From the NCBI GenBank assembly GCA_964530135.1, contig CAZGXN010000002.1, positions 3,308 through 67,307 on the forward strand: a stretch of 64,000 nucleotides of DNA, read 5' to 3'. Positions within the stretch are counted from its first letter, which is position 1. Every line of letters starts with the position of its first letter. The position numbers and the translations under genes were made by a program. The DNA is from an uncultured Bdellovibrionales bacterium. Its GTDB lineage: Bacteria; Patescibacteriota; Minisyncoccia; Moranbacterales; UBA1568. The notes under the pieces are model-generated. The model was not told the origin of the DNA. It saw nothing but the letters and a program-made list of their open reading frames with translations, and searched no databases. This document shows positions 9 to 18,038 of this stretch, in pieces.

Positions 9-1094
9 ATGCGTATACTTTTTGTCTCCCGGGCTTTCCCTCCGACCATTGGTGGCATCGAGCAACAAAATGCCGATCTCGCCCGATTCTTGGGGAAAGA
101 ATGCGAGTTGACCCTCATCGCCAACCGTCGCGGTAAACGCTTTCTCCCACTCTTTTTTCTCTGGGCGATGATCCGAACGCTCTTTCTCTTGCCGCGGCAT
201 GATGTCCTCCTCCTCGGTGACGGTGTTCTCGCTCTGCTCGGAGCAGTCGCCAAATATTTCAATCCCCACAAAACAGTCGTAACGGTACTGCATGGCCTCG
301 ACATTACTTATACAAATAGGTTTTATCAAAAACTGTGGGTCGGAATGTTTTTCCGCACACTCGATGGCGCGATCGCGGTCAGTCATGCGACTAAAATGGA
401 GGCAGTGAAACGCGGTTTCGATGCATCAAAAATTTTCGTTATCCCGAATGGGATCGAATCGAGCCGTTTCCACTTTCCAAAAGACCGGGCCAAACTTTCT
501 CAGCTCTTCGGATTCGACACGACCCAACATATCATCCTCCTCACTATCGGACGACTCGTGAAACGCAAAGGTGTCGCCTGGTTCATCCAAAATGTCCTGC
601 CAATCCTCCCACCAGAATTCTGCTATGCAGTCGCAGGTACTGGACCAGAGGAAACTGCCATCCACGAAGCGATCGCTCGTTCCGGAACCACAGAGCGTGT
701 CAAGCTCCTCGGCAGGGTGGACGATGCCACGAGGGAGACACTTCTTGCGAATGCTGATATTTTCATCCAGCCAAATATTCCAGTTACCGGTGATATGGAG
801 GGCTTCGGCATTGCCGTCATTGAAGCCAGTGCTGCCGGACTCCCCGTCGTTGCGAGCCGTCTCGAAGGACTACAAGATGCCATTGTGGATGGCGAAAACG
901 GACGACTGGTTACACCAGAACAGCCATCTGAATTCGCACAGACGCTCAAACAGATGGATGATCCCACTAGGAGAAAGCAACAAGGCGAACGGGGGCAACA
1001 TTTTACTATTGAACACTTCGAATGGACCAAAATTGCGAGACGCTATATCGCCCTCATTGAAGACTTTCGAAAAAGCATGCTCGATACGCACTGA
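9..1094 (+). CDS. GT4-family (GT-B fold) glycosyltransferase
   Basis: N-terminal 'ILFVSRAFPPTIGGIEQ' and C-terminal E-x7-E region 'EGFGIAVIEASAAGLPVVASRLEGLQDAIVDGENG' typical of GT4 retaining glycosyltransferases. Confidence 0.85.
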   Translation: MRILFVSRAFPPTIGGIEQQNADLARFLGKECELTLIANRRGKRFLPLFFLWAMIRTLFLLPRHDVLLLGDGVLALLGAVAKYFNPHKTVVTVLHGLDITYTNRFYQKLWVGMFFRTLDGAIAVSHATKMEAVKRGFDASKIFVIPNGIESSRFHFPKDRAKLSQLFGFDTTQHIILLTIGRLVKRKGVAWFIQNVLPILPPEFCYAVAGTGPEETAIHEAIARSGTTERVKLLGRVDDATRETLLANADIFIQPNIPVTGDMEGFGIAVIEASAAGLPVVASRLEGLQDAIVDGENGRLVTPEQPSEFAQTLKQMDDPTRRKQQGERGQHFTIEHFEWTKIARRYIALIEDFRKSMLDTH

Positions 1095-1105: not shown

Positions 1106-3028
1106 ATGCTTGCTATTTTCTCCACAATTATTTTCTGCGGTGTCCTACTACTCGGTTTTTTTCTCCCGGGTTTTGTGTGGTGGCGTGCACTCTTTGGTCG
1201 CGGGTGTTCAATCTGGGAAGAGCTCGTCCTGGCACTGGCCGGCAGCCTCGCGATCATTGATATCCTGATGCTCATCCTGGATCGAATTGGTCTCCCACTC
1301 GCAGCCAGTACTCTCGCTGGATCTCTCCTTGGTCTCACTCTTCTCGGGGCGGCAATCGCCTGGATCAGAAGTCAATCAACCAACCAGCCCCACGTATCCT
1401 CCGGTCTACATTTTTCTCTCCGCGGCCGATACATCTTTTTCAGTCTTTGTGCCCTCACCATCTTTATCCGGACTCTCTATCTCGCACCCAATATTCTACC
1501 GACTGCAACTGATCTCGGTCATCACATCTACTGGGCCGACAGTATCAAGCACACTGAATCCCTGCCAACATATCAGAAAATTGAAGTTGTTACCGACCCA
1601 ACAACCGGTGCGTCTACTATAGCGGTACCGCGCAAAATCGCTGACTTCATCATTGGCGAACATTTGCCACTGGCATTTTTTTCAAGTGTGAGCGGATTAT
1701 CATTTTTTAGTGCTTTTCCTATTCTATTTCTCCATCTCATTAATCTCCTCTCAGTCATAGCAGTCATGGTTTTGGCCTATCGTCTTGCCGAGCCATTCAG
1801 AGAAAACCTTAAACCCGAACTTATTGCACTCTGCGTCTTCTTTGTCCTCGGGCCGCTCTTTGCGCTCGCCTCACCCCAAGAAAAATTCGTAACCGGCGGA
1901 GTCGTGGGAAATATTTTTGGCAACTTCTTCATTCCAGTTATTTTACTTCTCTTCTACCGAGGCCTCAATGAAAAACAAGCACCTCTACTGACCGCTGGAT
2001 TTTTTTTCTCCTTCATACTCGCTTATACACATCACCTTTCGACGCTGGTACTCGCTGGTATCCTCTTGGGTATCCTAGGAGTTACTGGGCTCGCTCTCTG
2101 GCGAACAAAGCCAGGTTTTCTACGCGACTGGTTTCAGCTCGCTTACTCGCCCTCGCTGCTGATATTTCTTTTCCTCGCAGCACTCTTTATGTTACTTATC
2201 GCGTTACCGACCTACCTCGATACTACCGCTATCGACTCCGCACTGGGTACGCCCACGAAAACAACGCGCACCGGTCTTTCGTTTTTTCAAATCTCCATGA
2301 CCATCGGAGCAGCCAAAGTAGCTTTGGGAATCTTCGGGCTCTTGATCGCCCTCATAACCCTGCGCCGGCAACCGATAGCATCTGGCTTCTTGCTCGCCTG
2401 GGGCGGTATGCTCCTCATTATGACAATGTTTCCGCACGCTCTCTTTCTTGATATCCCCTCGAACCGCATCGGCAGTTATCTCAGTTACCCTCTCGGATTA
2501 ACCGCTGGATTCGCACTCGCTTGGACACTCTCCACTCTTTCTCAAAAAGTAGTATTACCACCTGTTCTCACGATTATCATTTTGACAAGTCTCGTCAGTT
2601 TTCTCATCGGTTCGGGATCAGTTGAAAATGCAAACTCACTCACATTCAAAGATCGGTCTCAGGAACTCGTCCAGACCTTCGCAGCGAGTGAGTACCTTGC
2701 TCAACACTCGAACGGCGAGATGATTTTAAAAGATCATAATTACCTCTCCGCCGACGCCTGGATAAAGATTTTCTTCAAACGCGATTATGGCTACCCGCTC
2801 TCGCGCGGACTCTTCGGACGTTATGAGGAAGGCGGCAATCGCCGCGAGCGCTGTACCCTCGCTATGATCTCAACCCCAAATACCGACGCTGGTGAACGCT
2901 GTTTCCATGAAACAGCCGTTCGATATCTCCTGGTCAACCCGATATACGACAGCGCGCAATTTGAGAAGTCCGACTCCTTCTCCAAGCTCTACACCAGCGA
3001 AACCGCAGCGATCTACGAAAAGCATTGA
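1106..3028 (+). CDS. large polytopic membrane protein, possible GT-C-like glycosyltransferase or polymerase (function unassigned)
   Basis: 640 aa, more than 10 predicted hydrophobic helices in the first ~500 aa then a soluble C-terminal domain; sits in the glycan cluster. Confidence 0.55.
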   Translation: MLAIFSTIIFCGVLLLGFFLPGFVWWRALFGRGCSIWEELVLALAGSLAIIDILMLILDRIGLPLAASTLAGSLLGLTLLGAAIAWIRSQSTNQPHVSSGLHFSLRGRYIFFSLCALTIFIRTLYLAPNILPTATDLGHHIYWADSIKHTESLPTYQKIEVVTDPTTGASTIAVPRKIADFIIGEHLPLAFFSSVSGLSFFSAFPILFLHLINLLSVIAVMVLAYRLAEPFRENLKPELIALCVFFVLGPLFALASPQEKFVTGGVVGNIFGNFFIPVILLLFYRGLNEKQAPLLTAGFFFSFILAYTHHLSTLVLAGILLGILGVTGLALWRTKPGFLRDWFQLAYSPSLLIFLFLAALFMLLIALPTYLDTTAIDSALGTPTKTTRTGLSFFQISMTIGAAKVALGIFGLLIALITLRRQPIASGFLLAWGGMLLIMTMFPHALFLDIPSNRIGSYLSYPLGLTAGFALAWTLSTLSQKVVLPPVLTIIILTSLVSFLIGSGSVENANSLTFKDRSQELVQTFAASEYLAQHSNGEMILKDHNYLSADAWIKIFFKRDYGYPLSRGLFGRYEEGGNRRERCTLAMISTPNTDAGERCFHETAVRYLLVNPIYDSAQFEKSDSFSKLYTSETAAIYEKH

Positions 3029-3061: not shown

Positions 3062-4105
3062 TCAATCCGCAACGGGAGCTGCACTTTTTTCACTCAAGAA
3101 ATTATCAAAACTCTGCTGGAGGCTCACTGCATCAATCTCCTGTCCGATGACAACAAGGGTGGATTGTCGCTGTTCTCCTGCTCGCCAAACACGTTCAGGA
3201 ATAATCGTGTACAGTGTATGCACCCCTTGGAGTACAGCTCGACGATCGGGCCACTCCGTCGTCGCTAGGATGCCCTTGTACCGCAAGAGGTTTGGACCAA
3301 GTGTATTTTGTAACTCCCCGATCCAGGCATAGAGTCGGTCGATGTCGATCGGCTTTTCGGTCCAGAGCACGACACTCGAGATGCCCGCCGTATGGCTCGC
3401 ATGGTCATGATCATCGTGTTCACGCCCCACCTCGGGCGCGGCAAAGAATCGGCGCTCCTGGAAAAGTTCGCTATTCTCCACTGCCCCATTCACGGCTTGA
3501 ATGATCGGTACAGCAGGATTAATACCGTGGATGCGTGCCTCAATTGTCTCTGCATCCTTTCCCTCCGGAAGCAAATCAGTCTTCGACAGAATGATGAGAT
3601 CAGCCAACGCGATCTGTTCAGCTGCCACCGGTAGATATCCGAGCTGCTTTTCAATATGGACCACATCGACGACAGTTACAACGGCCGAGATCTCGTAAGC
3701 GGTCATGAGCACCTCATCCATCATGAAGGTTTGGATAAGTGGGATAGGATCAGCCAAACCCGTTGTCTCGATGACGATGCGATCGAATTCGAGCTTCTTG
3801 ATATTCTCTCCTTCTTCTGTCATACCGAGTCGACGTTTCAGGAGATCAGTGAGCGTCTCCACAAGATCGTTTCGCACCGTGCAACAGATACAGCCATTGT
3901 CGAGTGTTACGAGATGCTCCTCACCACCAACAACAAGCGCACCGTCAATATCGACTGCGCCAAACTCATTTACAATCACTACAATTTTCTCATCCGTCCG
4001 GCTCCGAAGAATGTGGTTGAGGAGGGTCGTTTTTCCCGCCCCCAAGAAACCCGTCAGGAGCGTTACTGGAATCTTCTTGAAAACAGATTTTTGTGCTTGA
4101 TCCAT
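3062..4105 (-). CDS. COG0523/CobW-family GTPase metallochaperone
   Basis: P-loop 'GFLGAGKTTLL', metal-binding 'GCICCTV' (CxCC), His-rich stretch 'HDDHDHASH', CobW C-terminal-like tail; lone minus-strand gene between plus-strand genes. Confidence 0.85.
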   Translation of the reverse strand: MDQAQKSVFKKIPVTLLTGFLGAGKTTLLNHILRSRTDEKIVVIVNEFGAVDIDGALVVGGEEHLVTLDNGCICCTVRNDLVETLTDLLKRRLGMTEEGENIKKLEFDRIVIETTGLADPIPLIQTFMMDEVLMTAYEISAVVTVVDVVHIEKQLGYLPVAAEQIALADLIILSKTDLLPEGKDAETIEARIHGINPAVPIIQAVNGAVENSELFQERRFFAAPEVGREHDDHDHASHTAGISSVVLWTEKPIDIDRLYAWIGELQNTLGPNLLRYKGILATTEWPDRRAVLQGVHTLYTIIPERVWRAGEQRQSTLVVIGQEIDAVSLQQSFDNFLSEKSAAPVAD

Positions 4106-4202: not shown

Positions 4203-4568
4203 ATGACAGAGAATCGCCTCGCCTTAAGCCTTTTTTTCCTGTTCGCACTTTCCGCTGCGTACCTGTTTTCGGTAAACGAGCGCGGGCTTGATCCGGATCA
4301 GGGCAAGAGCTGGTGGAGCCTGGCTTTCACTCGGCCACCTGAGTCCAGAGATCTCGGCTTCACGATTGCCAATCACACCAAGGATCGGGTATTCCATTAT
4401 ACAGTCAACTCCGACCAAGGCGTATTGGCAACCGGTGAACTCTCGATTGAACCTGGACAGAGTATCGAATATACGCCAAACCTTTCCACATCATTCCCGA
4501 TATCTGGACGGGTTACAATCACCGTTACGCATGAAGCCAAAGACGAAACCATCTATCGTTCGCTATGA
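4203..4568 (+). CDS. small secreted or membrane-anchored hypothetical protein
   Basis: N-terminal signal-peptide-like 'LALSLFFLFALSAAYLFS'; no recognisable domain. Confidence 0.45.
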   Translation: MTENRLALSLFFLFALSAAYLFSVNERGLDPDQGKSWWSLAFTRPPESRDLGFTIANHTKDRVFHYTVNSDQGVLATGELSIEPGQSIEYTPNLSTSFPISGRVTITVTHEAKDETIYRSL

Positions 4569-5689
4569 AACATGTCCTCCTCGCCACACGCCCGATCACA
4601 CCCCCCTGGGATGAAGCTTCAAAAAACTTTGCGTATTTTCTCGGAAAAAGTATTTCCGACCATGCTCTGACACTTCTCACGACCGCAGGCACCCCCCTCG
4701 TTGATATACCCGCAACCGCTATACAAGAACCGCTCTATCCCTCAGCCCAATTCAACTTTCGTGCTAAACGCACTCTCTTTGCCTATCTCCACGCCCAGCG
4801 CAATGCCTTTGATATAACCCACTACCTTTTCACACCTACTCGGCTCAATACTGGTCTGATCCGCCACTTCGCCTTTCCAACACGCGGAAAAACTCTTCAA
4901 ACCATAGCCACGCTCCGGACCGATCTCTACGGTCCAGCCACTCTGAAAAATATCCTTTTTGCGGATGCCATCACGGTCTATACCGATGCGACGCAGAAAA
5001 AACTGAAGGCCCTCGGCTTTACAAATGTTCATCACATCTATCCAGGTATCGACCTTGATCAGTACCAGCCACGAGAAAAAAGCGCGGCCGTCTTGGAAAC
5101 ATACGCGCTCAAGCCAGATGATTTTCTTGTCGTATACCCCGGTGAATACACGCGCCTCGGTGCGACTGATTTCCTCGTTGAAACTCTGATTCGCCACTTT
5201 ACCCACCCAATTTCTGAACCGTTTATTTTTCTCTTTGCCTGTCGAATCAAAAACGAGGCTGATAGAAAAAAGCGTGAAACTATACGCGAAGCGTTCCGTC
5301 AAGCCGGTTGTCTCGATAGAGTTCGCTTTGAAGAGAACCAGGCCACTATAAATATGGCCGAGATCTACAATACGGCCGATGTCATTGTGTTTCCAGTAGG
5401 CGACTTAAAAGGAAAATTTGATGTGCCGCTCATCATTATTGAGGCCTATGCCTCAGGAAAACCTGTTATCCTCTCCGATCTTGAGGCCTTCCGAGAGTTT
5501 TCAAACGAACATATTTCTGTTACCATCCCCAGGCTCCAAGGCCAACCATTTATCGAAAAAATACTTTATTTAAAGCATAATCCAGAAGTTTGCCAGACGC
5601 TTGGTCACGCTGCTCGAGCCTTCGCCCAAACCCACTTCGATCTCCGCGACACGGCCCGACGGTACGCTGAGCTCTATGCATCACTTTGA
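4565..5689 (+). CDS. divergent GT-B fold glycosyltransferase (GT4-like)
   Basis: C-terminal 'PLIIIEAYASGKPVILSDLEAF' resembles the GT4 nucleotide-sugar binding region; ATGA overlap with the upstream gene. Confidence 0.6.
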   Translation: MKHVLLATRPITPPWDEASKNFAYFLGKSISDHALTLLTTAGTPLVDIPATAIQEPLYPSAQFNFRAKRTLFAYLHAQRNAFDITHYLFTPTRLNTGLIRHFAFPTRGKTLQTIATLRTDLYGPATLKNILFADAITVYTDATQKKLKALGFTNVHHIYPGIDLDQYQPREKSAAVLETYALKPDDFLVVYPGEYTRLGATDFLVETLIRHFTHPISEPFIFLFACRIKNEADRKKRETIREAFRQAGCLDRVRFEENQATINMAEIYNTADVIVFPVGDLKGKFDVPLIIIEAYASGKPVILSDLEAFREFSNEHISVTIPRLQGQPFIEKILYLKHNPEVCQTLGHAARAFAQTHFDLRDTARRYAELYASL

Positions 5690-5702: not shown

Positions 5703-7208
5703 ATGTACGAAACAGCCATACACACGATCAGCCACCTCAAGAAAAAAATGCAGACCGCCAAGATGAAGGTGCCGGTCGTGTTCCATGTTGGCGATGAACT
5801 GATGCCCAGTGAATCAACACTCGAACAACTTGAAAGTGTGGCTGCGAACGATTCTGTTTTCCATCATATTGCTGCCATGGCCGATGTGCATTCGAAGCCA
5901 GGCCGAAAAAATGCCACTGGAACAACCGTCACATCCGAGAATTATATCCTCCCACAGGTCAATGACTCTGATCCAGCCTGTGGTATGCGCCTTGTAAAAA
6001 CGAATTTAACCGAAGAAAATATTACCCCTGAAGAGCTCGATATTCTCTTCCGTGAACTCGTCAAGACCGTTCCGACAAAAAAATTTATCGGGACCCGTGT
6101 TTCTTTCAAAACGATCGTCGATATCTGTCGTGGCGGCATTCAGCCGCTTATTCAGACACTACATATTCAGACTAAAAACGAAACAACTCACTGCCTTGAA
6201 AATGGAAATTTTTTTTCCAAGTCTGTATCTCGTGACACTATCTTTTCAGTTATTCCCAAACTCTTTCTCTGGTTTGCAACTTTTCGACTCGGCATCTTGG
6301 GTGCAGCCGGGAATCATTTTCTCGATCTCATGAAAGTCACTGGGATCGAAGATGAAGAAACCGCCCGAAAATTTGGACTTAAAAACGGACAGTATGTGTT
6401 TATGGTGCACTGCGGCTCTGGCATCCTCGGCCAGTACACGATGTACATGTACACTGCCAAGAAACGCGAACATTTCTCTCAAGCTCTGATGGTTGAGCTT
6501 GGCAAACTCCTCTTCCGCTCACCTTTGAAGTCAGTCTATAACCGCATCGCCAAGAAGATCAAAGCCTATCAATTCGGCGCCAAGGAAGAACTCTTCACCT
6601 ATGAGGGCAACGGACCCGAAGGCGAAATGTACATGACTGCACGCAATGCCTGCTCCAACTTTGCACATGCCAATCGTGCCGTCATCACCCACAATGTCAG
6701 CGAGACTATCAAACGCGTGCTCGGCCGCGATCCGGAATTAGAGCTTCTCTACGATATGCCCCATATTCTCGTTTCTCGTGAGGAACACTATGGAAAAAAT
6801 ATCTGGGTACACCGGAACGGCACTTCCAGAGCCTATGGACCGAGCCGCATGCAGCATCACCCGCTCTTCCGAGAAACTGGTGAACCCGCCTTCATCCCTT
6901 CTTCAATGTCGACCGAGGCCTTTCTCTGCGTCGGTCTCGATGGCAACGAGTCGAGCTTCTACTCCTGCAATCACGGCGCAGGAAAAGCCAAAGCGAAGTC
7001 GGACGCGCTCGTGCCGGAAGACAAGGCAGCGCTGCATGATAAGCTCAAGACCCGCGGCGTGAAACTCTACAACGGCCAATCCTCGAAAGTCATTGAGCAA
7101 GACTCATCCCACTACAAACGCATCGATGACATCATCGCGACCGTTACCGAGAACCAGGTCGTGAAGCCCGTCGCTCGGCTTATGCCAGTCGCAATCATTA
7201 TGTACTAA
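5703..7208 (+). CDS. RtcB-family 3'-phosphate/5'-hydroxyl nucleic acid ligase-like protein, divergent
   Basis: Motifs matching RtcB metal/GMP sites: 'MADVHSKPGRKNATGTTV' (cf. PDxHxGxG), 'DPACGMRL' (Asp/Cys site), 'MVHCGSGILG' (cf. HSGSRGLG), 'CNHGAGK' (cf. NHGAGR). Start placed at the first ATG after the upstream stop; the ORF-track start at 5601 overlaps the upstream gene. Confidence 0.65.
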   Translation: MYETAIHTISHLKKKMQTAKMKVPVVFHVGDELMPSESTLEQLESVAANDSVFHHIAAMADVHSKPGRKNATGTTVTSENYILPQVNDSDPACGMRLVKTNLTEENITPEELDILFRELVKTVPTKKFIGTRVSFKTIVDICRGGIQPLIQTLHIQTKNETTHCLENGNFFSKSVSRDTIFSVIPKLFLWFATFRLGILGAAGNHFLDLMKVTGIEDEETARKFGLKNGQYVFMVHCGSGILGQYTMYMYTAKKREHFSQALMVELGKLLFRSPLKSVYNRIAKKIKAYQFGAKEELFTYEGNGPEGEMYMTARNACSNFAHANRAVITHNVSETIKRVLGRDPELELLYDMPHILVSREEHYGKNIWVHRNGTSRAYGPSRMQHHPLFRETGEPAFIPSSMSTEAFLCVGLDGNESSFYSCNHGAGKAKAKSDALVPEDKAALHDKLKTRGVKLYNGQSSKVIEQDSSHYKRIDDIIATVTENQVVKPVARLMPVAIIMY

Positions 7209-7289
7209 TCCCATTTTGAACACACAGCTTACAACATAGAACACCTGATATTGTGTCTTATTTGTTCCATGTTTTAAGTTCTCTGTTTC

Positions 7290-7889
7290 ATGAAAATCAT
7301 TACTTTCAGCGGCATTGATGGCTCGGGGAAATCGACCCAGTTAGCGCTTCTCAGAAAACGACTCGAAGCGAAAGGGGCCCGCACTGCTTATTTCCACGCC
7401 GTCCAATGGAGTCTGCCACAGACCGCCAAACGGTTGTTTCAGCGTAAACAGACCAAACCAGGCGAAAGCAAAGCCGTAACCAAAAGCTCATTCCTCGGTG
7501 TTTGGTTGCGTCAAGCGGTCTTGCTCCTAGACTTAGTTCGGTTTCGGCGTTTTCTCAATGACCTACGGCATACTGAAGTCGACTATCTCCTCTCCGACCG
7601 CTACTTTTACGATTCGCTTATCAATATCGCCTATCTCGATGGTACCTTACTTGATACTTCCTATGCCCGCTTCACGACTCGTTTCATCCCAAAGCCTGAT
7701 TGCGCCTTTTTCCTCTCGGTCTCACCCGAATCCGTCATGCGTCGCGAGCGTGCACCAGAACAGGGACTCCAATACCTAAAAGACAAGCACAGTCTCTTCC
7801 AAGAAGCCGCCACACTCTGGAACTTCATCACGATCGATGCCGGACAGGACCCAGAGAGCATCACCACTGCTATCAACACAGCCCTATGA
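7290..7889 (+). CDS. thymidylate-kinase-like P-loop kinase (Tmk family, divergent)
   Basis: 'ITFSGIDGSGKSTQ' P-loop as in Tmk; LID-like 'DRYFYDSLINIAY' (cf. DRYxxSxxAYQG); lacks the canonical REPGGT motif. Confidence 0.65.
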   Translation: MKIITFSGIDGSGKSTQLALLRKRLEAKGARTAYFHAVQWSLPQTAKRLFQRKQTKPGESKAVTKSSFLGVWLRQAVLLLDLVRFRRFLNDLRHTEVDYLLSDRYFYDSLINIAYLDGTLLDTSYARFTTRFIPKPDCAFFLSVSPESVMRRERAPEQGLQYLKDKHSLFQEAATLWNFITIDAGQDPESITTAINTAL

Positions 7890-9382
7890 AACATTTTTCC
7901 CGATCGCTGGTTTGGCTCACTGCTTCAGAAATTATTTTCAATATTGCTGCCTATGTCGTCCATTCGGTAGTTGGTCGCATTCTCGGACCAGCAGACTACG
8001 GCCGCTATGGACTCGTTGTAACGCTGACGACTATGGTTATTGTTCTCATCGGAAATGGCCTACCAACAGCGATGTCCAAATACCTCAGTGAAGTACTTGA
8101 AAAAGCACCGGAAACAATTCACGCTATAAAAAAGAAAACTGCCCTGCTCCAAGCGAGCCTGATTGGTCTCGTAACCGGTATATTCTTCCTCCTCGCCCCA
8201 GGGATCGCCTTCATCCTCAAGGATGATTCGCTCACACCGCTCTTCCGCCTCTCCGCACTCATCATTCCGACATTTGCCGCTGCCTCGTTCTACCATTACT
8301 ACCTCATCGGACTCCACCTCTTCCGGCTTCAGGCGATCATAAAAATTATTCGCTCCATCGCACGGGTCGGGTTTATTGCGCTAACTGCTATCTACTTTGG
8401 ACTCGATGGTGCGATTGCGGGCTATATCCTCGCCCCACTCTTCACTTTTCTTGCCGTGATTATTATTGACGAATTTTATATCAAACGACGACTCGGCATC
8501 GGACGGAGAGCAGAAACCAATAATGTTCCGTTCCCCGCCAAGACCTTACTCCTCTATGCTGGACCATTGACGCTCTTTCTTATCTTTTATGAACTCCTCC
8601 TCACGCTTGATCTCTACTTTGTCAAAGCACTCCTTCAGGACGATCACCTCACGGGACTCTACAATGCCGCTATTACTGTGGGCCGCATCCCATACTATCT
8701 TTTTGCTGCACTCGCTATGATCCTCCTCCCAGCTATTTCCAAGACAACCGCCGAACGCAATAATACTGAGACAAAATCACTCGTCGAGCGCTCCCTCCGC
8801 CTCCTCGCGCTTATTCTCTTCCCTCTGGTTACACTCCTCTCTGTTTATGCCAGCGAAATCCTCCATCTCTTCTATGGAAATCGGTATGATGGAGCGGCAG
8901 CGGCGATGCAGGTTTTTACAATTGGAGTCGGTTTCCTGACAGTCTTCTATGTCCTCGCCTTTGCACTCAATGGAGCCGGTAGGGTAAAAATTCCGCTCTG
9001 GCTCTCTTGCGCTGGCTTCATTGGTATGTTGGTACTCAACTTCCTCCTCATCCCATCTTTTGGCATTGTTGGAGCAGCCCTGGCTACAACCATCGTCTCA
9101 GGATTCCTGATGCTCGGCATCCTCATATACACCGAGATTCATTTCCATGCCAAACTTTCGCTCCGCCTCATATTGATTTCACTCGCCTCCGCGATCGGTA
9201 TGGCACTCCTCGCTGTACATGTCTTGCCCCATGGCCGCTGGGGCTTTATATTCTCAGGTGTCTTCCTCACTGCTTTGTACTATGGTGTCCTGCGCATCAC
9301 CCATGAACTTACAGATGATGACATCGCCCCATTGCTCAAACTCTCCCGAAAGAGAGACTCTATTACTCAAAAGATCTCTTGA
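7886..9382 (+). CDS. Wzx-type oligosaccharide flippase (MOP superfamily)
   Basis: About 12 predicted TM helices, 'GRILGPADYGRYGLVVTL' N-terminal motif typical of polysaccharide-biosynthesis (Wzx) proteins; start chosen at the ATG overlapping the upstream stop (ATGA) rather than the ORF-track 7700. Confidence 0.8.
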   Translation: MKHFSRSLVWLTASEIIFNIAAYVVHSVVGRILGPADYGRYGLVVTLTTMVIVLIGNGLPTAMSKYLSEVLEKAPETIHAIKKKTALLQASLIGLVTGIFFLLAPGIAFILKDDSLTPLFRLSALIIPTFAAASFYHYYLIGLHLFRLQAIIKIIRSIARVGFIALTAIYFGLDGAIAGYILAPLFTFLAVIIIDEFYIKRRLGIGRRAETNNVPFPAKTLLLYAGPLTLFLIFYELLLTLDLYFVKALLQDDHLTGLYNAAITVGRIPYYLFAALAMILLPAISKTTAERNNTETKSLVERSLRLLALILFPLVTLLSVYASEILHLFYGNRYDGAAAAMQVFTIGVGFLTVFYVLAFALNGAGRVKIPLWLSCAGFIGMLVLNFLLIPSFGIVGAALATTIVSGFLMLGILIYTEIHFHAKLSLRLILISLASAIGMALLAVHVLPHGRWGFIFSGVFLTALYYGVLRITHELTDDDIAPLLKLSRKRDSITQKIS

Positions 9383-9403
9383 AAAAATACTGGTAATATG
9401 CCA

Positions 9404-9430
9404 CTCTGTGGGTACAGAGATCGTGTTTTT
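9404..9430 (+). terminator. possible weak intrinsic terminator after the flippase
   Basis: stem CTCTGT/ACAGAG with loop GGGT, T6 tract 6 nt downstream. Confidence 0.3.
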
Positions 9431-9460
9431 TATCGTCACCCTCAACCCAAGGAGACCGGC

Positions 9461-9853
9461 ATGAAAATAGCTGTTTTTCCGAATCCTTTCGACTGGTTCT
9501 CTGGCCAGCTTCGCGGATGGAATCAGATCCAGGAGTTGATCTTCCAAGACTGGATTGCCTTCCTCAACCAAGTCAGCCAAAGAGCTGACAGGCTCTCTCC
9601 ACGAGATATCGCCCTCGATCGGATCAACCAGATGCAGGTTCTCCTGTATCGCGGATATGTCCGTCGGCAGCATCTGAAAAAGCTCTCCAGTCACGAGCGC
9701 GAGATGCAACGCTTTGCCCAATGGATGCACCGCCACTCGGAAAATTTCCGTCGCCTCATCGACCTGTATCCAGAATGGCTCGCGCAGTTCAATGATCCAG
9801 CATTCCCGCGTGCTCGGCTCCTGCGTACGATCGCATTCCACCTATACCAATAA
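9461..9853 (+). CDS. hypothetical basic soluble protein
   Basis: ATG preceded by AAGGAG at 7 nt; 130 aa, R/K/H-rich, no recognisable domain; the competing minus-strand ORF 9254..9841 overlaps the flippase and was rejected. Confidence 0.45.
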   Translation: MKIAVFPNPFDWFSGQLRGWNQIQELIFQDWIAFLNQVSQRADRLSPRDIALDRINQMQVLLYRGYVRRQHLKKLSSHEREMQRFAQWMHRHSENFRRLIDLYPEWLAQFNDPAFPRARLLRTIAFHLYQ

Positions 9854-9938
9854 ATGGGACCCTCTGTGCCCAATGAAAAAGTCCGAACACTCAGCGAGTG
9901 AACGGACTTCTTTTTTTAATAACCTAAAAGGAAAATTA

Positions 9939-11477
9939 TCATTTCCCAGGCCCCCAACGATAAACCGTGATATCTCCGCGGACACTCGCGTTACTGACAC
10001 GCTCCCAATGCTTTTCAACATACTGTTCAACCTCTGAAGAGATATAATCCTCATCATTGCCAGAATAGATAAACCATCCGGATGGATATTCGGCTTCAAT
10101 TTTCTGAACATCAGCGAGAGAAAGTTTTTCCTTTGAGAGTTCGCCTCCAAAATCAAAAACTTTCACCTGAGCCCCACTCCAATAGTAATTGCGAAAATTG
10201 CGCGTAATGAGAGCATCTCCGGCCAGGCGCTCTTTCTTGAAGTATGTGAACACTTTCCGGTAATTTGGATTTCCGCCCGAAGAGGTTTCATGGTACGTAT
10301 TGTTCTCCTCAAAGAAATAACCAAGGTTCGGAACAAGGATAAAGAGTGCGATTCCGGACAGTATCCCTGTGCGCCAATTCCAGCGTTCTCCGATCGCCTT
10401 CTGCAAAAATTCAAACACCCCTATGATACCCGTCGCCGCTAAGATCATTCCGAATGATTGGATGAAAAATATATACTGCGGCCCGACATTCCGGCGCCAG
10501 AGAAAGATTGCCATAAGAAGCGGCACAAAATAAGCGAGGATGAGATACCAGACGGCTGAACGATACTCTGTTCTCCGAAAGAGAAAAGCGGTGCCAAAAA
10601 CAATAAGCCCGGCACCGATGACTGGTGTCGCAAAATCAGCAAGTGCGTGCGTCAAATATCCGAAGTGGTCATCAAAGAAAATAAGTCCCTGTGTAAAAGA
10701 CCGTATCGTCTTGGGGAAGAAGAGGAATGCAACCACTACTGCCCCTGCACCAAACAGAGTGGAATACCCGTACCGATTTTTCCATTCGCCCGTTGCGCGA
10801 TAACGGAGATATGTCTGAAGTAAGACATATGCGCCGAAAGAAATCAGGAGATGTGCTGTCATCTGATGCACCGAAAGAGACAACACTGTGACCGCTCCCG
10901 CCAATACGAGATACGGTACATGAATACCAAAGCGACGTGAAGCATCTTTCAAAAATGTGATGCTGCCCTCATAGGTGCGCTCATAGGCTGCATAGAGCGC
11001 GGTCGCAGCAGTGAGGTAGAGCGGAAAGAACATGGCATACATGCGGAGGCGACGGCTAAAGATGATCGCTGAAATGGAGAGGGCACACATGAGCGCGGCC
11101 ACCAGACCAATATCACGCCTCTGAGTAAAAATCCAAGCAGACCAAAAAACAATCAGGATTGCAAAGATTCCCCAGGCCACACTCACGGAACGCGCGACTG
11201 CCTCAGTCGGAGGCAGGATACTAAAGAGCGCGGCCACCTGAAACTTGTACGGTGCAGCGCGTTCATCCCGAAGCACATTCTCATTCACACTACTCGGCAT
11301 AGTGTAATTAAAATCCCAGGCTTGCCACTCCCCAGTCTGATGATAACCATACGCTGAATTGATATCGAGGAATTCGTCCGCAACAAAGGAATTCTCACCA
11401 AGATTATAAAAACGAAGTACAACCCCAACCAGAAGGATAATCACAAGTATCTGAATCGTTCGTTTCCAATCAAGCAT
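9939..11477 (-). CDS. GT-C fold membrane glycosyltransferase, ArnT/PMT (GT39/GT83)-like
   Basis: 'RFYNLGENSFVADEF' first-loop DE motif region typical of ArnT/PMT_2 family, many TM helices, soluble C-terminal domain; start set at the internal ATG to avoid overlapping the upstream gene (alternative 11513; ORF-track 11648). Confidence 0.75.
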   Translation of the reverse strand: MLDWKRTIQILVIILLVGVVLRFYNLGENSFVADEFLDINSAYGYHQTGEWQAWDFNYTMPSSVNENVLRDERAAPYKFQVAALFSILPPTEAVARSVSVAWGIFAILIVFWSAWIFTQRRDIGLVAALMCALSISAIIFSRRLRMYAMFFPLYLTAATALYAAYERTYEGSITFLKDASRRFGIHVPYLVLAGAVTVLSLSVHQMTAHLLISFGAYVLLQTYLRYRATGEWKNRYGYSTLFGAGAVVVAFLFFPKTIRSFTQGLIFFDDHFGYLTHALADFATPVIGAGLIVFGTAFLFRRTEYRSAVWYLILAYFVPLLMAIFLWRRNVGPQYIFFIQSFGMILAATGIIGVFEFLQKAIGERWNWRTGILSGIALFILVPNLGYFFEENNTYHETSSGGNPNYRKVFTYFKKERLAGDALITRNFRNYYWSGAQVKVFDFGGELSKEKLSLADVQKIEAEYPSGWFIYSGNDEDYISSEVEQYVEKHWERVSNASVRGDITVYRWGPGK

Positions 11478-11487: not shown

Positions 11488-13284
11488 TTATTCTGACTGA
11501 TTATTTGCCTCATCCTCAAGTTTGTCGAGGGTGCTGCCATCTTCACTAGTACCACTCTTTGAACGACTGAAATATTCGTTCCAAGTATACCGCGGGGGCG
11601 CTTTAGAGTCACTCGGCTTTGGGATCGAAAAGTCCTGGCGCTCTCCAATAATCACCGATTCTTTCGGTAAGAGCTCAATCGCCACGAGTGTACCAAATGG
11701 TGTCATCGTTCCGATATCATAACTTGCCCGATACTTCCTCAATGCATCTTCAAGATCCGACTGTGCCCGTACAATAAGATAATAGACTCCTTCCCGATAA
11801 ATACCATCATATCCAAGCACGGCATTTTCTACTCCCCGTTTTTCAAGAAGGTATTTCAATGCCCGACGATGCTGCGGCTCACTGAACATATACACGGGGT
11901 ACCCCTGCACTCTTGAACGCGCCTGAAGAAAATCGACGATAGCCAACTGCTGTTCCAGCGTTACTCGGATACGCTCCTTGAGAATCCGATCGGGTGGACT
12001 ATCAACGGGTTCAGTTTTTGCTCGGGATAATTCATCAAAACGATGAGTGAGTGAAGAGAGATTGAGTCCAGCGAGCATGAAGAAAAGCAGGGCCACGACA
12101 ATACGGCCGTAGGCGCGCCCCGGCAACGCTCGGACAACAATCAATCCAAGACATCCAAGCAAAACAAAGAAAAAAGGTCCGGAAAGCAGGAAAAATCGTG
12201 GTGCCACACCGTATGCAAGCGGTGTAAACAACCCAAAAGTAACTATCAACCACAGACCTACAGCCAGGAGAAAGTCTTTTTTCCTTCGTTCTTTTTCCCG
12301 AAGATAGAGGAATCCAAACGCGAACACCGCCAACCCAAATACACTGGCCGCGATAAGACCGTAGGGCTTCCCAATATCGCATTTTGTCTGACATGTAATG
12401 ACAAGGCCGCTAACCGTCTTCACGCTTGGCAGGGTTCCACCTTCAAATCCCGTCATTATGACGAGTCCGGCCAGAGTATGCTCGGTAATATTGCGAATGA
12501 ATTTCTCAAGGAAAACATGGTCTTCTTTGGTTGATTTCTCCGTGATTGCGTCAAAAAATTCTTTTGTATTCGCCCCGCCACTCGCCCATTCATTCAAAAG
12601 CATCGGAAGATAACCGATGATGACGATACCCAGTGCTGCCCCCCAGGCCCGAAGACTGAATTTTGGACGCCGCAAAAGAAAAAAGATGGCGAGGAATGTT
12701 GGTATTGCGAGAAAAGCCAAAAAATGAAGCTGTGTCGCAAGAGTGAAGGCAAATACCGAAACAGCAAACCAACGCCCCGGATGGCGCACCTCACCACCGA
12801 CCGCACGGAGCAACCCATACATGCCAAGAAGGAGAAAGAACGGCAACATATTTGGATTCCAAGCAAAACGGCCATACATCACAAAATATTCGGACACCGC
12901 AAAAACCAGGGTGAGTAATACACTCAGCCAATCAGGAAAAAAACGTCGCATCAAAAGAAAAAATATGCCGATGGATGCTACTGACACGGTCAGTACGATC
13001 GCTGCCATCCCGGCCGGTGTCCCGCCGAATATGGAAGCTCCAAGATATTGGAGGTAATAATACCCGGGCGCAAGCCGGAGAAAAGTCCCACCGGCTTTCG
13101 GTCCGAGGAGGGGGAGTGCCGCTGGACCCTCCTCGAGCGCCCGATCGATAACACGCGCGTCTCGCGATTGATCCAATTCAAAATGTAGCCAATCCGTGAA
13201 GTGATAGGAGCGGAGGAAAAATCCCAGCGTAATAATGAGTGCGAGCCCGATCCACACGAGCCGTTGTCGCCTTTCTGGAACCAT
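11488..13284 (-). CDS. GT-C fold membrane glycosyltransferase, ArnT/PMT-like (paralog)
   Basis: 'LGFFLRSYHFTDWLHFELDQSRDA' loop-1 region, more than 10 TM helices, about 200 aa C-terminal soluble domain. Confidence 0.75.
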   Translation of the reverse strand: MVPERRQRLVWIGLALIITLGFFLRSYHFTDWLHFELDQSRDARVIDRALEEGPAALPLLGPKAGGTFLRLAPGYYYLQYLGASIFGGTPAGMAAIVLTVSVASIGIFFLLMRRFFPDWLSVLLTLVFAVSEYFVMYGRFAWNPNMLPFFLLLGMYGLLRAVGGEVRHPGRWFAVSVFAFTLATQLHFLAFLAIPTFLAIFFLLRRPKFSLRAWGAALGIVIIGYLPMLLNEWASGGANTKEFFDAITEKSTKEDHVFLEKFIRNITEHTLAGLVIMTGFEGGTLPSVKTVSGLVITCQTKCDIGKPYGLIAASVFGLAVFAFGFLYLREKERRKKDFLLAVGLWLIVTFGLFTPLAYGVAPRFFLLSGPFFFVLLGCLGLIVVRALPGRAYGRIVVALLFFMLAGLNLSSLTHRFDELSRAKTEPVDSPPDRILKERIRVTLEQQLAIVDFLQARSRVQGYPVYMFSEPQHRRALKYLLEKRGVENAVLGYDGIYREGVYYLIVRAQSDLEDALRKYRASYDIGTMTPFGTLVAIELLPKESVIIGERQDFSIPKPSDSKAPPRYTWNEYFSRSKSGTSEDGSTLDKLEDEANNQSE

Positions 13285-15620: not shown

Positions 15621-16594
15621 TGCGTTGTTGATGGTCCTGAGTCTGTGGTACGGCGCAGGATGAGGTAGTTTGGTAATGCAAGAAAAGAAATGAGCATCTG
15701 GAGAAGCCGCGAGCACAAGGCAGCGGTTACTGCGAGTTCCGACGAAACACCGACGAGTCCGAAAAAAAAGACATAGGCCCATTCCTTCACGCCAATATTG
15801 TTAATAGAAATCGGGATATTGGCCACGAGCGTCGCTGCAAAGATAGCGCTCCCAAACGCCAGTAGTGAAATATCTGCTCCAAGGCTAGAAAAAAGTATAA
15901 AGTTACTGCCACCGATACCAACGAGGGTAAAGAGTGATGCCCAAAGTATGGTTTTCATGTATATGTTTCTGCTGATGAAGGGAACAAAATCCCCCAGAAG
16001 AAGCGTTGGTTTTTTCCAGGGTAACAATTCAAAAAGGGATACTGCGAGTGTATACAATCGCTCCACTACAAACAGTGCGAGAAGCATCGCGAGAGCCACT
16101 GAAAGCGTGATGGCAGCAAATAGTATGAATACCGGACGATCAAGGAGGATTTGCCAGGGCAACAGCGTAATTCCAATTCCAGAAAAAAGAAAGAGTGCCA
16201 AGAGGCCAGTGATGCGGTCAAACAAGACCACTGCAAAGGCACGGGATCGCTCACCGACTTTGGACATCCAAAATACTCGATACGCATCACCGCCAACAGT
16301 TGATGGAAGGAAGTTGTTTATGAGAGCCCCAGTGAGATAAGCAAAGACCCCTTCCTGTATCGAAAACTTAAACCCCTGAATGCGAGCGAGATACTGCCAC
16401 TTGGCGGAAGAAATGATATTTCCCAGTATCTGGACACCCATGTAAGCAAAAATCAGTGGTCCAGAAGCATTGGCCAAGATATGACCAACCACTGGCCAAT
16501 CAACTTTTTGGATAAGCCAGTATACGAGCACGGCACTCACGGCGATTTTCAGTACTGTTTTCCAATATTGCATATCTCTCACTATAGCAATCAT
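15587..16594 (-). CDS. LPG-synthase-TM / flippase-like domain (UPF0104) membrane protein
   Basis: 'NNFLPSTVGGDAYRVFWMSK' motif characteristic of the lysylphosphatidylglycerol-synthase TM / flippase-like family, about 8 TM helices; convergent 34-bp overlap with the upstream gene's 3' end. Confidence 0.6.
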   Translation of the reverse strand: MIAIVRDMQYWKTVLKIAVSAVLVYWLIQKVDWPVVGHILANASGPLIFAYMGVQILGNIISSAKWQYLARIQGFKFSIQEGVFAYLTGALINNFLPSTVGGDAYRVFWMSKVGERSRAFAVVLFDRITGLLALFLFSGIGITLLPWQILLDRPVFILFAAITLSVALAMLLALFVVERLYTLAVSLFELLPWKKPTLLLGDFVPFISRNIYMKTILWASLFTLVGIGGSNFILFSSLGADISLLAFGSAIFAATLVANIPISINNIGVKEWAYVFFFGLVGVSSELAVTAALCSRLLQMLISFLALPNYLILRRTTDSGPSTTHYSAKRNIFTK

Positions 16595-16695: not shown

Positions 16696-16838
16696 TGTCG
16701 CGTGCCTAGTGTGCGTGACAAGGGGTCTTTGTGCCTATCGTTGGTACTTTGACAATTTCAATCAGATATCCTGAAAAATTCGCCTCTTGTTTGTAGGGGG
16801 AGTAATGAGTTTTTCGGTGAATCTATACATCTGGAGAA

Positions 16839-17831: not shown

Positions 17832-17863
17832 CCAAAGACGGCGGGGTAACCAGAGGCTCTGAA

Positions 17864-17902
17864 GCCGGCCAAGTGTAACAACACAGGGCCGGCTTTTTCT
17901 TT
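17864..17902 (+). terminator. intrinsic terminator after the 16839 gene
   Basis: GCCGGCC...GGCCGGC stem (7 bp) followed by TTTTTCTTTT; begins repeat copy 2. Confidence 0.7.
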
Positions 17903-18017: not shown

Positions 18018-18038
18018 TTTTCCAATCAGGAGATCTCA

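Follow-up and report, generated by a model that had tools for sequence, protein, structure and literature searches.

Gene organization of the glycan cluster

We analyzed a 64,000-nt stretch of DNA (referred to here as the window) on contig CAZGXN010000002.1 of an uncultured bacterium of the Moranbacterales (Candidatus Moranbacteria; Patescibacteriota, or CPR). A divergent RtcB-family protein (501 aa; nt 5703–7208, forward strand) and a Tmk-fold P-loop kinase (199 aa; 7290–7889, forward strand) are encoded there among genes for glycan synthesis and export. The 5′ part of the cluster contains a GT4 glycosyltransferase, GT4a (9–1094, forward strand; Pfam Glyco_trans_1_4/Glycos_transf_1, E = 1e-29), which occupies an upstream position in 53 of 80 Moran-type loci, and a 640-aa protein (1106–3028, forward strand), which is syntenic in 52 of the 80 loci and gave only a weak match to DUF1616. 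Counterparts of this protein in relatives are DUF6541/DUF1616-like, with orthologues matching DUF6541, and it may be a GT-C-like membrane protein. A GTPase of the CobW/HypB/UreG family (3062–4105, reverse strand; Pfam cobW, E = 1e-54, and CobW_C), a family in which metallochaperones are found, is present in about 10 of the 80 loci and was inserted into the cluster in this sub-lineage only. The next gene encodes a conserved 121-aa protein (4203–4568, forward strand) that has no Pfam or NCBIfam match and is syntenic in 51 of the 80 loci and in the out-clade. Its end overlaps by 4 nt the start of the gene for a second GT4 glycosyltransferase, GT4b (4565–5689, forward strand; Pfam Glyco_trans_1_4), which shows the tightest link to the RtcB-like gene and lies 13 nt from it in the window.

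The RtcB-like and kinase genes are separated by an 81-nt spacer (7209–7289, forward strand), in which no terminator-like site was found, and the stop codon of the kinase gene overlaps the start codon of a Wzx/MOP-family flippase gene (7886–9382, forward strand; Pfam Polysacc_synt, Polysacc_synt_3 and MurJ) in the sequence ATGA at 7886–7889. An earlier note on this DNA had described both genes as embedded in, and translationally coupled to, a glycan-export operon. The embedding and the ATGA overlap were both borne out, but the RtcB-like and kinase genes, with this spacer between them, are not translationally coupled in the window. Further downstream are a conserved 512-aa protein (9939–11477, reverse strand; gene call of the native contig, L001), which has no Pfam match, is syntenic in 45 of the 80 loci and, from its size and position, is likely to be a membrane protein; a syntenic PMT_2-family glycosyltransferase (11488–13284, reverse strand; Pfam PMT_2); a PMT/PMT_2-family glycosyltransferase (13377–15620, forward strand; Pfam PMT_2 and PMT), which, like the preceding one, we take to be of GT-C type; and a flippase-like LPG_synthase_TM membrane protein (15587–16594, reverse strand; Pfam E = 2.8e-36). 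A UDP-glucose dehydrogenase and a GT2 glycosyltransferase are encoded upstream in the native contig, and further glycosyltransferases downstream in the window. The locus thus combines a flippase, several glycosyltransferases and nucleotide-sugar enzymes, the features that define a Wzx-dependent glycan locus.

No initiating phosphoglycosyltransferase (Bac_transf or Glycos_transf_4) was found in the conserved core, from the UDP-glucose dehydrogenase through PMT, either in the window or in the annotated loci. The sole Bac_transf gene (39127–40542) lies approximately 30 kb away, and in view of this gene in the wider region we set aside the idea that the kinase and the RtcB-like protein replace the initiating enzyme. 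No tRNA or Rfam RNA gene was detected in the window, and rtcA, rtcR, archease and prfH were not called in the Pfam-annotated loci. PADLOC returned nothing beyond P-loop noise, on which ground a defence-system reading was rejected, and no mobile-element gene adjoins the pair.

The RtcB-like protein

The product of 5703–7208 was identified by its Pfam match, by alignment with 1uc2 and 4dwq and by an AF2 model. It matched Pfam RtcB (PF01139) end to end (model positions 1–424 of 426 against residues 42–499; E = 2.5e-76; 258.1 bits, cut-off 27). The start codon is correctly placed at the ATG of 5703, because the homologues are 501 aa long with 100% query coverage and the native-contig gene call agrees. 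The best Foldseek matches of the model (pLDDT 87.7) were 4dwq_A and 1uc2_A (TM-score 0.79–0.82); the TM-score was 0.8 with P. horikoshii (Pho) RtcB and 0.80 with human RTCB. The protein stayed below the NCBIfam equivalog cut-offs of PRK09588 and release_rtcB (118.9 against 407 and 81.8 against 271.8), and the base composition of its gene is the same as that of the flanks. The variant motifs DPACGMRL, MVHCGSG and NHGAGK, pointed out in the earlier note, were all confirmed, and the product belongs to the RtcB family with a variant active site.

In an alignment of 121 sequences of the RtcB-like clade, Pho Asp95, Cys98, His203, His234, His329 and His404 correspond to D90, C93, H205, H236, H354 and H424, all of which are conserved in 121/121 sequences. 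D88 is likewise invariant; in the wider clade D88 is the invariant Asp, joined by D90 in the Moran type, and many divergent RtcB-like proteins have a residue other than Asp where Asp95 aligns. The motifs MVHCGSGILGQY and YDMPHILV were each present in 121/121 sequences. Pho Arg238 (E. coli Arg189), by contrast with these kept residues, is replaced by Gly240 in every one of the 121 sequences. The functionally weightiest changes had been missed by the earlier note: Glu206 to Asp208, the C-terminal Lys480 to Met500 and Asn330 to Ile355, which are near-invariant across the clade, and a clade-specific insertion of approximately 25 residues after the HCGSG motif (about residues 246–300). NHGAGK (R408K), which that note had counted among the hallmark variants, did not hold up as such, as many clade members carry HGTGR; since Arg is also common in the out-clade, R408K was rejected as a clade-defining change.

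The roles of these residues were taken from the RtcB literature (PMC8051266 and PMC9745838). Arg238 holds the 5′-OH RNA strand by its first two phosphodiesters (PMC8051266), and the same paper gives, for E. coli RtcB R189A, 200-fold slower sealing and just 3-fold slower RNAppG formation. Glu206 and Lys480 read guanine N1/N2 and O6, and Asn330 contacts the γ-phosphate of GTP (PMC9745838). A review of RtcB (PMC10630183) does not mention these residues (Arg238 and the other contacts). The invariant R195 of the RtcB-like protein aligns with Pho Gln194, another contact of the 5′-OH strand, and from this alignment it could make up for the lost Arg238 in strand binding. The intact catalytic centre argues that the enzyme is likely to be active.

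The Tmk-like kinase

The kinase was identified from Pfam Thymidylate_kin (46.3 bits, cut-off 27), an AF2 model (pLDDT 89.4) and a family alignment. Its closest folds are dTMP kinases (TM-score approximately 0.7), and its only significant profile matches are to dTMP kinases; it did not reach the cut-off of the NCBIfam dTMP-kinase equivalog TIGR00041 (38.9 against 83.25). NCBI records for these proteins carry the name hypothetical. The family has kept the GxDGSGKST P-loop, the SDRY motif, R84 in helix 3 and the lid arginines R152 and R154. In a profile alignment to PfTMK, R84 lines up with the arginine that contacts the acceptor phosphate in the “FSANRWE” helix of Tmk. Given that the two acceptor-phosphate arginines of Tmk are kept, the kinase may phosphorylate a phosphate, in the manner of an NMP kinase, rather than a hydroxyl. 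The thymine site is not kept: Y99 and Q100 of Tth Tmk are replaced by N112 and I113, REPGG by HAVQW, and the REPGG/FPER signature of a dTMP site is absent. H36, S41 and N112, which stand at the thymine-stacking or -reading and REPGG positions, do not vary within the family. The family also has a long helix of its own and a disordered, basic loop at residues 52–64, neither of which has an equivalent in Tmks. The protein is therefore, as previously described, a Tmk-like kinase with P-loop and DRY but without the thymine-reading residues; its LID, which had been assigned to the DRY motif, is instead the RRERAPEQG segment. Neither a canonical Tmk nor a second RtcB turned up, whether in the window or among sampled loci totalling 2.55 Mb, which are a biased sample.

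Conservation of the gene order

Synteny was examined in 80 species genomes and in another 80 loci from metagenomes (RtcB identity, 41–53%). Among the assessable loci of the species genomes, GT4b was upstream of the RtcB-like gene in 67/67, the kinase downstream in 74/76 and Wzx, also downstream, in 62/63; the corresponding values for the metagenome loci were 52/54 for GT4b and 50/63 for the kinase. The position of the RtcB-like gene is thus fixed over the sampled genomes or contigs, at least 160 in number, and its product is the best conserved of the cluster (median identity of 67%, against 36–60% for the neighbours). Part of this synteny could reflect inherited order rather than selection, because the sampled diversity may be mostly one lineage (Moranbacteria-like Patescibacteria). 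P0244, considered as a second paralogue in Moranbacteria, was rejected as such because it fills the same slot of the same cluster. Exceptions were a sub-lineage of P0242 type (L093 and L097), where the gene lies beside cysS, prfA and L31 and away from glycan genes, and three loci (L102, L107 and L157) in which the kinase gene is not near the RtcB-like gene.

The spacing between the RtcB-like and kinase genes varied from 5 to 3305 nt in relatives, often with a Wzy_C-type glycan gene in between. This variation weakens the view that the two genes form an inseparable pair, and the link between GT4b and the RtcB-like gene is tighter. At 130 GT4/RtcB junctions, 17 pairs of genes overlapped (by 4–14 nt), 36 were separated by 30 nt or less and one pair was fused. 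The fusion protein (P0420) is a GT4::RtcB polypeptide encoded by an 886-aa ORF without internal stops, and the identical assembly was obtained from two independent metagenomes. It was found by a homologue search with a profile built from the closest non-LMY groups, in which LMY-type proteins dominated the list. As a whole, the RtcB-like protein and the kinase are a fixed part of an envelope-glycan cluster across a lineage of ultra-small bacteria.

Distant relatives

A triad of GT4, RtcB-like and kinase genes with overlapping ends was also found at 34% identity (L172/L173) in a different glycan cluster, which contains rml genes, Epimerase_2 and DUF2142. Other RtcB-like proteins without Arg238, at 31–36% identity, are encoded in lipid or glycan clusters with LPG_synthase_TM and GT2/GT4, some of them also with the kinase or a CDP-alcohol phosphatidyltransferase. 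In L172, L174, L176 and L178, the LPG_synthase_TM gene adjoins or overlaps a gene for the kinase or the RtcB-like protein; in the case of L174, it overlaps the latter. In L178, the RtcB-like and Tmk-like kinase genes are 1 nt apart, and the neighbours are CDP-OH_P_transf, GT2, DUF6541 and sugar-modifying enzymes. The link to GT4 is loose in the one non-CPR example (Calditrichia). In the tree, a single split separated the proteins lacking Arg238 from canonical RtcBs, with 103 of 104 sequences correctly parted, and the insertion of approximately 25 residues is common to the Arg238-less branch.

Discussion

On balance, we consider it probable that this RtcB-like branch was recruited from RNA end-joining into envelope glycoconjugate synthesis, where it would form a module with GT4 and the kinase and make use of NMP-transfer chemistry. 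Rather than RNA, the substrate of the enzyme is probably a sugar or lipid precursor, as we infer from gene context and residue changes. The earlier note had suggested neofunctionalisation on a phosphorylated non-RNA substrate, and the synteny, the gene overlaps, the GT4::RtcB fusion and the recurrence in unrelated glycan and lipid clusters favour that suggestion, in terms of comparative genomics. In the proposed pathway, the kinase would phosphorylate a sugar, an alcohol or a lipid-linked intermediate to give a phosphomonoester, and H424 of the RtcB-like enzyme would be charged with NMP from an NTP by means of the conserved Cys/His metal centre, probably without canonical reading of the nucleotide as guanine. 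The NMP would then be moved to the phosphomonoester, as RtcB does with an RNA 3′-phosphate. Since the Arg that positions the 5′-OH strand for sealing is absent, the reaction would most likely stop at a pyrophosphate-linked NDP-X, an activated donor for the coupled or fused GT4; in a distant relative, its user could be the CDP-alcohol phosphatidyltransferase. Alternatively, a non-RNA hydroxyl might complete the reaction and yield a phosphodiester-linked glycan. Export would be by Wzx or LPG_synthase_TM-type flippases, and the cluster's GT-C enzymes would then use the product.

It is rather unlikely, but by no means negligible, that the protein is instead a true RNA 3′-phosphate/5′-OH ligase for housekeeping repair or processing, the glycan location being a matter of inherited order or shared transcription and the kinase an unrelated nucleotide kinase. 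The full RtcB fold and every metal and GMP-His residue are kept; indeed, only the 5′-OH-strand contacts are missing from the catalytic machinery of RNA ligation, which counts against a non-RNA reading. Invariant R195 could stand in for Arg238, the residue whose loss costs sealing 200-fold, but both guanine readers are gone as well. Conservation above that of all other cluster genes would be expected of a core enzyme, and the P0242-type sub-lineage places the gene beside translation genes; against this stand the GT4::RtcB fusion, the 17 overlapping GT4/RtcB pairs, the triad in a different glycan cluster and the distant relatives in lipid and glycan clusters of other architecture. The 2.55 Mb of loci (a biased sample) contained no second, canonical RtcB, which agrees with an RNA ligase; rtcA, rtcR, archease, prfH and RNA genes were not found nearby, which does not. 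To our knowledge, no need for RtcB in housekeeping splicing is known in bacteria, and this too counts against an RNA ligase. The earlier note had held that a simple housekeeping insertion would show all six metal and GMP residues, a canonical phylogenetic placement and an rtcB–kinase neighbourhood independent of glycan genes. The six residues are indeed kept, but the placement is non-canonical and the neighbourhood is tied to glycan genes, so that this refutation does not apply.

The kinase, for its part, might be an NMP kinase (a dTMP kinase that has diverged, or an enzyme for another NMP), which supplies NDP or NTP for nucleotide sugars or recycles the NMP from the RtcB-like enzyme, rather than producing the phosphomonoester on which the latter acts. 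Release of NMP is part of RtcB chemistry (PMC8051266). Such a function would be compatible with a glycan role of the RtcB-like enzyme. Its affinity in fold and profile to dTMP kinases, the retained P-loop, DRY, R84 and lid arginines and the position of the L172 triad next to a dTDP-rhamnose (rml) operon, a dTTP consumer, all agree with an NMP kinase; we nevertheless hold it to be unlikely, as the thymine-site and REPGG positions are occupied by other, family-invariant residues (H36, S41 and N112), the dTMP-kinase cut-off is missed, the NCBI names are hypothetical, and the extra long helix and basic loop do not occur in Tmks.

A catalytically dead RtcB-like protein, acting as a scaffold or regulator of a glycan-synthesis complex, would explain why several contacts to substrate and cofactor are lost and why Asp is lacking at the Asp95 position in many divergent RtcB-like proteins. 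Dead enzymes usually lose their catalytic residues, whereas here the Cys, the four His and the Asp (D88, joined by D90 in the Moran type) never vary and the nearby motifs are close to 100% conserved over 121 sequences, which makes this explanation very improbable. A selfish or recently acquired passenger pair, for instance a mobile cassette for RNA repair or defence in a polysaccharide locus, which the earlier note had entertained and for which it counts that RtcB genes are unexpected in glycan loci and that such loci are hot spots of gene flux, is least credible of all and already refuted by synteny, given the fixed position (in 80 species genomes and, at identities as low as 41%, in another 80 metagenome loci), the stronger constraint on the RtcB-like gene than on its neighbours, the flank-like base composition, the PADLOC result and the absence of adjoining mobile-element genes.

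Canonical RtcBs (P. horikoshii PH1602, E. coli RtcB and human RTCB) share with the RtcB-like enzyme the Pfam family, the fold, the two-metal Cys/His/Asp centre and the nucleotidylated His. The latter differs in lacking Arg238, Asn330, Glu206 and Lys480, in its insertion and in its separate tree branch; it occurs in a glycan cluster and was once fused to GT4, whereas canonical RtcB is associated with rtcA/rtcR, archease or prfH. We know RtcB only as a nucleic-acid end-joining enzyme. Capping reactions of RtcB offer a precedent for a capped stage: PMC8051266 refers to a stable DNA3′pp5′G (DNA3′ppG) product of E. coli RtcB and 5′-phosphate capping by Myxococcus xanthus RtcB3. As described there, these reactions show that RtcB chemistry may finish with a phosphomonoester stably joined to NMP through a pyrophosphate bond, the very step proposed for the RtcB-like enzyme, but they act on nucleic-acid ends, whereas our proposal concerns a non-nucleic-acid phosphate.

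The kinase has in common with the Tmk/NMP-kinase group the P-loop, DRY, lid arginines and overall fold, and differs from Tmk in the replaced thymine residues and REPGG, the additional helix and basic loop and the sub-threshold equivalog score. Pathways composed of a kinase, a nucleotidylyltransferase and a transferase include LicA/LicC/LicD phosphocholine decoration, FKP fucose salvage and the Kennedy pathway. By analogy, the proposed route would follow the same logic (X to X-P to NDP-X to an envelope acceptor), and the neighbours resemble those of LicA/LicC/LicD-type pathways (glycosyltransferases, flippases and, in L178, a CDP-alcohol phosphatidyltransferase). Known nucleotidylyltransferases have another fold and form no covalent enzyme-NMP intermediate, and we know of no RtcB-family enzyme in this role. 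With Wzx/Wzy and GT-C (PMT/ArnT-like) loci the cluster shares Wzx, GT2, GT4, UDP-glucose dehydrogenase, PMT_2 and, in relatives, Wzy_C; it differs from them in that its core does not encode an initiating phosphoglycosyltransferase and includes the RtcB-like protein and the Tmk-like kinase. Our literature search retrieved no described Wzx/Wzy or GT-C locus with this combination.

More tentatively, though as a serious possibility, the Arg238-less proteins, with their insertion and, in most cases, a Tmk-fold kinase as partner, could represent an unrecognised RtcB branch outside RNA metabolism, devoted to the His-NMP-dependent activation of kinase-made sugar, alcohol or lipid phosphates and forming a core trait of Moranbacteria-like CPR. 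Envelope glycoconjugates would receive NDP-linked donors or phosphodiester linkages from this activation. Hundreds of such genes now carry the labels “tRNA-splicing ligase RtcB” and “thymidylate kinase”. If the proposal is true, the biochemical scope of the RtcB fold would widen, with NMP activation of phosphomonoesters extending to sugars or lipids. It would add a new route to activated donors or phosphodiester-linked polymers, and with it a third, mechanistically new way to activated glycan building blocks. It would also open a conserved surface-glycan pathway to functional study for the first time in CPR bacteria, a group whose envelopes and chemistry of host attachment have hardly been characterised.

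The RtcB-like gene and its surroundings

The two ORFs that the earlier note described as a variant RtcB gene and a thymidylate kinase-like gene were both present and both had Pfam matches. The first (positions 5703–7208, plus strand) encodes a 501-aa protein that gave a full-length match to Pfam RtcB (258 bits, E-value 2.5e-76) and scored far under the NCBIfam equivalog cut-offs for the RNA-ligase RtcB. The second (7290–7889, plus strand) encodes a 199-aa P-loop protein that passed the cut-off of Pfam Thymidylate_kin (46 bits) and missed that of the NCBIfam dTMP kinase (38.9 vs 83.25). The overlap claimed between the kinase gene and the Wzx/MOP flippase gene was also confirmed, since the kinase stop codon shares ATGA (7886–7889) with the flippase ATG. 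A GT4 glycosyltransferase gene (hereafter GT4b) ends 13 nt upstream of the RtcB-like gene, and no terminator-like site was found in the 81-nt spacer between the RtcB-like and kinase genes. The window opens with a large single glycan-biosynthesis region of ~40 kb. The source organism is a Candidatus Moranbacteria/Moraniibacteriota bacterium (CPR/Patescibacteria), and the kinase was 100% identical to a protein on a 94-kb ENA contig with matching gene order.

An oppositely oriented CobW/HypB/UreG-family GTPase gene (3062–4105, minus strand) is embedded in the cluster; only about 10 of the 80 related genomes have it. Because this family includes metallochaperones and RtcB activity depends on transition metals, a role of the GTPase in metal supply is conceivable. 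A second glycan sub-cluster (18615–40542) follows the first and contains GT4, a second UDP–glucose dehydrogenase, GT2 genes, an epimerase, an AsnB-type amidotransferase, two methyltransferases, a PMT-like protein, a second Wzx (35028–36464, minus strand) and the only Bac_transf phosphoglycosyltransferase (39127–40542, minus strand). Long ORFs at 16758–17792 (minus) and 16839–17831 (plus) overlap almost completely; the Pfam scan gave no match for the former or for the adjacent ORF 17970–18530, and the GC content around 16758–17831 and 17000–19000 was 0.55–0.57, compared with ~0.49 in the cluster. Within the periplasmic P1 region of a SecD homologue (47503–49224, minus strand) lies an inserted PPIC-type peptidyl-prolyl isomerase (Rotamase) domain, a combination that looks unusual.

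Active site of the RtcB-like protein

The RtcB-like protein has an intact catalytic center with altered substrate and cofactor contacts. Alignment to Pyrococcus horikoshii RtcB showed that the metal ligands and the GMP-histidine are all kept (D90, C93, H205, H236, H354 and H424), and the AlphaFold model (pLDDT 87.7) superposed on the P. horikoshii structure 4DWQ with a TM score of 0.79–0.82. Arg238 (P. horikoshii numbering), which contacts the first two phosphodiesters of the 5′-OH strand, is replaced by Gly240; in Escherichia coli, substitution of the equivalent residue (R189A) made sealing 200-fold slower and RNAppG formation only 3-fold slower (PMC8051266). His242, which packs on the 5′-terminal nucleoside of the same strand (PMC8051266), is replaced by Gln, and Asn330, which bonds to the GTP γ-phosphate (PMC9745838), by Ile355. 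The guanine readers Glu206 (N1/N2) and Lys480 (O6) (PMC9745838) correspond to Asp208 and the C-terminal Met500, and Arg408 to Lys428. The replacements are fixed: MVHCGSGILGQY and YDMPHILV each occurred in 121/121 sequences of the close clade, and GNHFLDL and the terminal IMY are fixed too. Across the wider clade R408K is variable rather than universal, and D88 takes the place of D90 as the invariant Asp.

The protein belongs to a separate branch of the RtcB family. A homologue search covering 1.8 billion cluster representatives returned only 156 matches below 1e-30. They are full-length relatives whose identity declines gradually from 59% to about 25%. The canonical state E/R/N/R/K was found in 44 of the 104 representatives scored at the key positions, the remainder being a large radiation without Arg238 and/or Asn330. 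In a neighbor-joining tree, one split parted canonical from divergent sequences (103/104). The divergent branch has an insertion of ~25 residues after the HxGS motif (median anchor-to-anchor length, 81 residues vs 56 in canonical sequences), at about residues 246–300 of the window protein, and the sub-branch containing the window protein has also lost both guanine-reading residues. An AKKREH motif is likewise invariant. In the alignment of representatives, many Arg238-less proteins had Asp at neither the canonical DxxC position nor the DxxxxC position of the window protein, suggesting that some of the divergent proteins may have a differently built metal site 2, or none.

Conservation of gene order

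Scanning a single genome for each species detected a close relative in 276 genomes, and in the best 80 (63–87% identity) the neighboring genes were located by tblastn with the cluster proteins of the window; judged by source names, most of the diversity in the whole sample seems to be one Moranbacteria-like lineage. On the same strand as the RtcB-like gene, GT4b was upstream in 67/67 assessable loci, and the kinase and Wzx were downstream in 74/76 and 62/63, respectively. RtcB was the best-conserved cluster gene (median identity, 67%), followed by Wzx (60%), GT4b (55%), the kinase (46%) and a 121-aa protein (36%). The spacing between RtcB and the kinase ranged from 5 to 3305 nt, and in 30 loci the gap was occupied by a minus-strand ORF of 430–540 aa, which was Wzy_C where Pfam-annotated. 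These data indicate that RtcB is a stable cluster member with GT4b as its tightest partner, whereas the tightest partner of the kinase is Wzx.

Many of these loci (L010, L016, L019, L024 and others) come from TPA metagenome-assembled genomes titled “uncultured Bdellovibrionales bacterium”; they carry the Moranbacteria-type cluster (63–86% RtcB identity), and the label looks wrong. Isolate MAG_322 (JBPOHW01) has two RtcB-like copies, on contigs L044 and L088 (68% and 70% identical to that of the window), reflecting either a real duplication or two strains mixed in the bin. In one relative, a 23S_rRNA_IVP-family gene encoding a four-helix-bundle protein (L007:4142–4498) lies between GT2 and GT4a.

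The linkage to glycosyltransferases, flippase-type proteins and a Tmk-fold kinase is deep, repeated and physically tight. In 80 further loci from a metagenome scan (41–53% RtcB identity), the order was GT4a, a 640-aa protein, a ~120-aa protein, GT4b, RtcB, kinase and Wzx, followed by PMT-type enzymes; GT4b was upstream in 52/54 loci and the kinase downstream in 50/63, and the motif state was D/G/(V,I)/M, as in the close clade. The P0244 type (41% identity) occupies the same cluster slot, with a 14-nt GT4/RtcB overlap. The P0253 type (34% identity) resides in a different glycan cluster, with Epimerase_2, Methyltransf_21, DUF2142 and an rml operon, and has an intact GT4–RtcB–kinase triad whose genes overlap by 8 and 4 nt. 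Among GT4/RtcB pairs in 130 loci, 17 overlapped, 36 had gaps of ≤30 nt and one was fused. The fusion (protein P0420), in one organism, is a single ORF of 886/876 aa without internal stops (L170:157–2817, ENA ERZ27257431 k141_1303864; L162:~8819–11446, JGI Ga0116156_10000158), with 100% identity between the independent assemblies of two metagenomes. Downstream come a Metallophos phosphoesterase with an apparent N-terminal membrane anchor and, next, a Tmk-like kinase.

A handful of neighborhoods was sampled from more distant Arg238-less groups. P0256 (31% identity) lies with GT4, a methyltransferase, a B12 radical SAM enzyme, LPG_synthase_TM overlapping RtcB, Polysacc_deac_1 and GT2, and P0246 (36%) lies with GT4, a Tmk-like kinase, a B12 radical SAM enzyme, GT4 and LPG_synthase_TM, RtcB being listed last. 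P0261 (32%) is followed 1 nt on by a Tmk-like kinase and flanked by a CDP-alcohol phosphatidyltransferase, a B12 radical SAM enzyme, LPG_synthase_TM, GT2, DUF6541 and sugar-modifying enzymes. The link is weaker for P0262 (Calditrichia, 30%), with two GT4 genes about 5 kb off. The B12-binding radical SAM gene recurs beside the distant RtcB-like/LPG_synthase_TM genes in three architectures (L174:2955–4451, L176:2738–4279 and L178:147–1556), a hint that the lipid or glycan product is alkylated or modified in another way.

The kinase

The kinase model was confident (pLDDT 89.4) except in a basic loop (residues 52–64). Its nearest solved folds were all dTMP kinases (TM ~0.7, 20–27% identity), and Tmks were the only solved structures that the family profile matched. 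Conserved features are the P-loop, DRY, the lid arginines and R84, which lines up with the acceptor-phosphate Arg in the “FSANRWE” helix of Tmk. Where Tmk has its thymine-reading residues and REPGG motif, the family has other invariant residues (H36, S41 and N112). From this pattern of residues, the acceptor is probably anionic and recognized otherwise than Tmk recognizes dTMP. The P-loop, R74, D81, DRY, D108, P156 and K166 of the window kinase recur in the distant kinases.

Proposed function

In databases these genes are annotated as “tRNA-splicing ligase RtcB” and as “thymidylate kinase” or “hypothetical”, and full-text literature searches returned no report that connects RtcB with CPR bacteria, with glycosyltransferases or with polysaccharide loci. 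The protein could be an ordinary RNA ligase held in place by inherited gene order, in keeping with its intact RtcB core and an invariant Arg195 at another strand-contact position. The main synteny exception points the same way: in the P0242 sub-lineage (L093:640–4168 and L097:4999–10907) the gene lies outside the glycan cluster with no kinase near it, between L31 and prfA-like ORFs upstream and a cysS-like ORF downstream, as judged by N-terminal sequences only. We consider this explanation the less likely one, though a serious rival. The kinase may, for its part, be an NMP kinase feeding or recycling nucleotides. The idea in the earlier note that the RtcB-like gene is a selfish passenger is refuted by the synteny data.

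We favor a three-step activation, which fits the specific loss of a residue that sealing alone requires, and also fits the known ability of RtcB to halt at a stable 3′ppG adduct on DNA (PMC8051266). The kinase would generate X-phosphate; the RtcB-like enzyme would form His–NMP and pass the NMP on to yield NDP–X; and NDP–X would be the donor for the coupled GT4 or, in L178, possibly for the CDP-alcohol phosphatidyltransferase. The data are equally compatible with a variant in which a glycan hydroxyl finishes the reaction, giving a phosphodiester. As a whole, we infer that the RtcB-like enzyme probably works in glycoconjugate biosynthesis on a non-RNA phosphomonoester.
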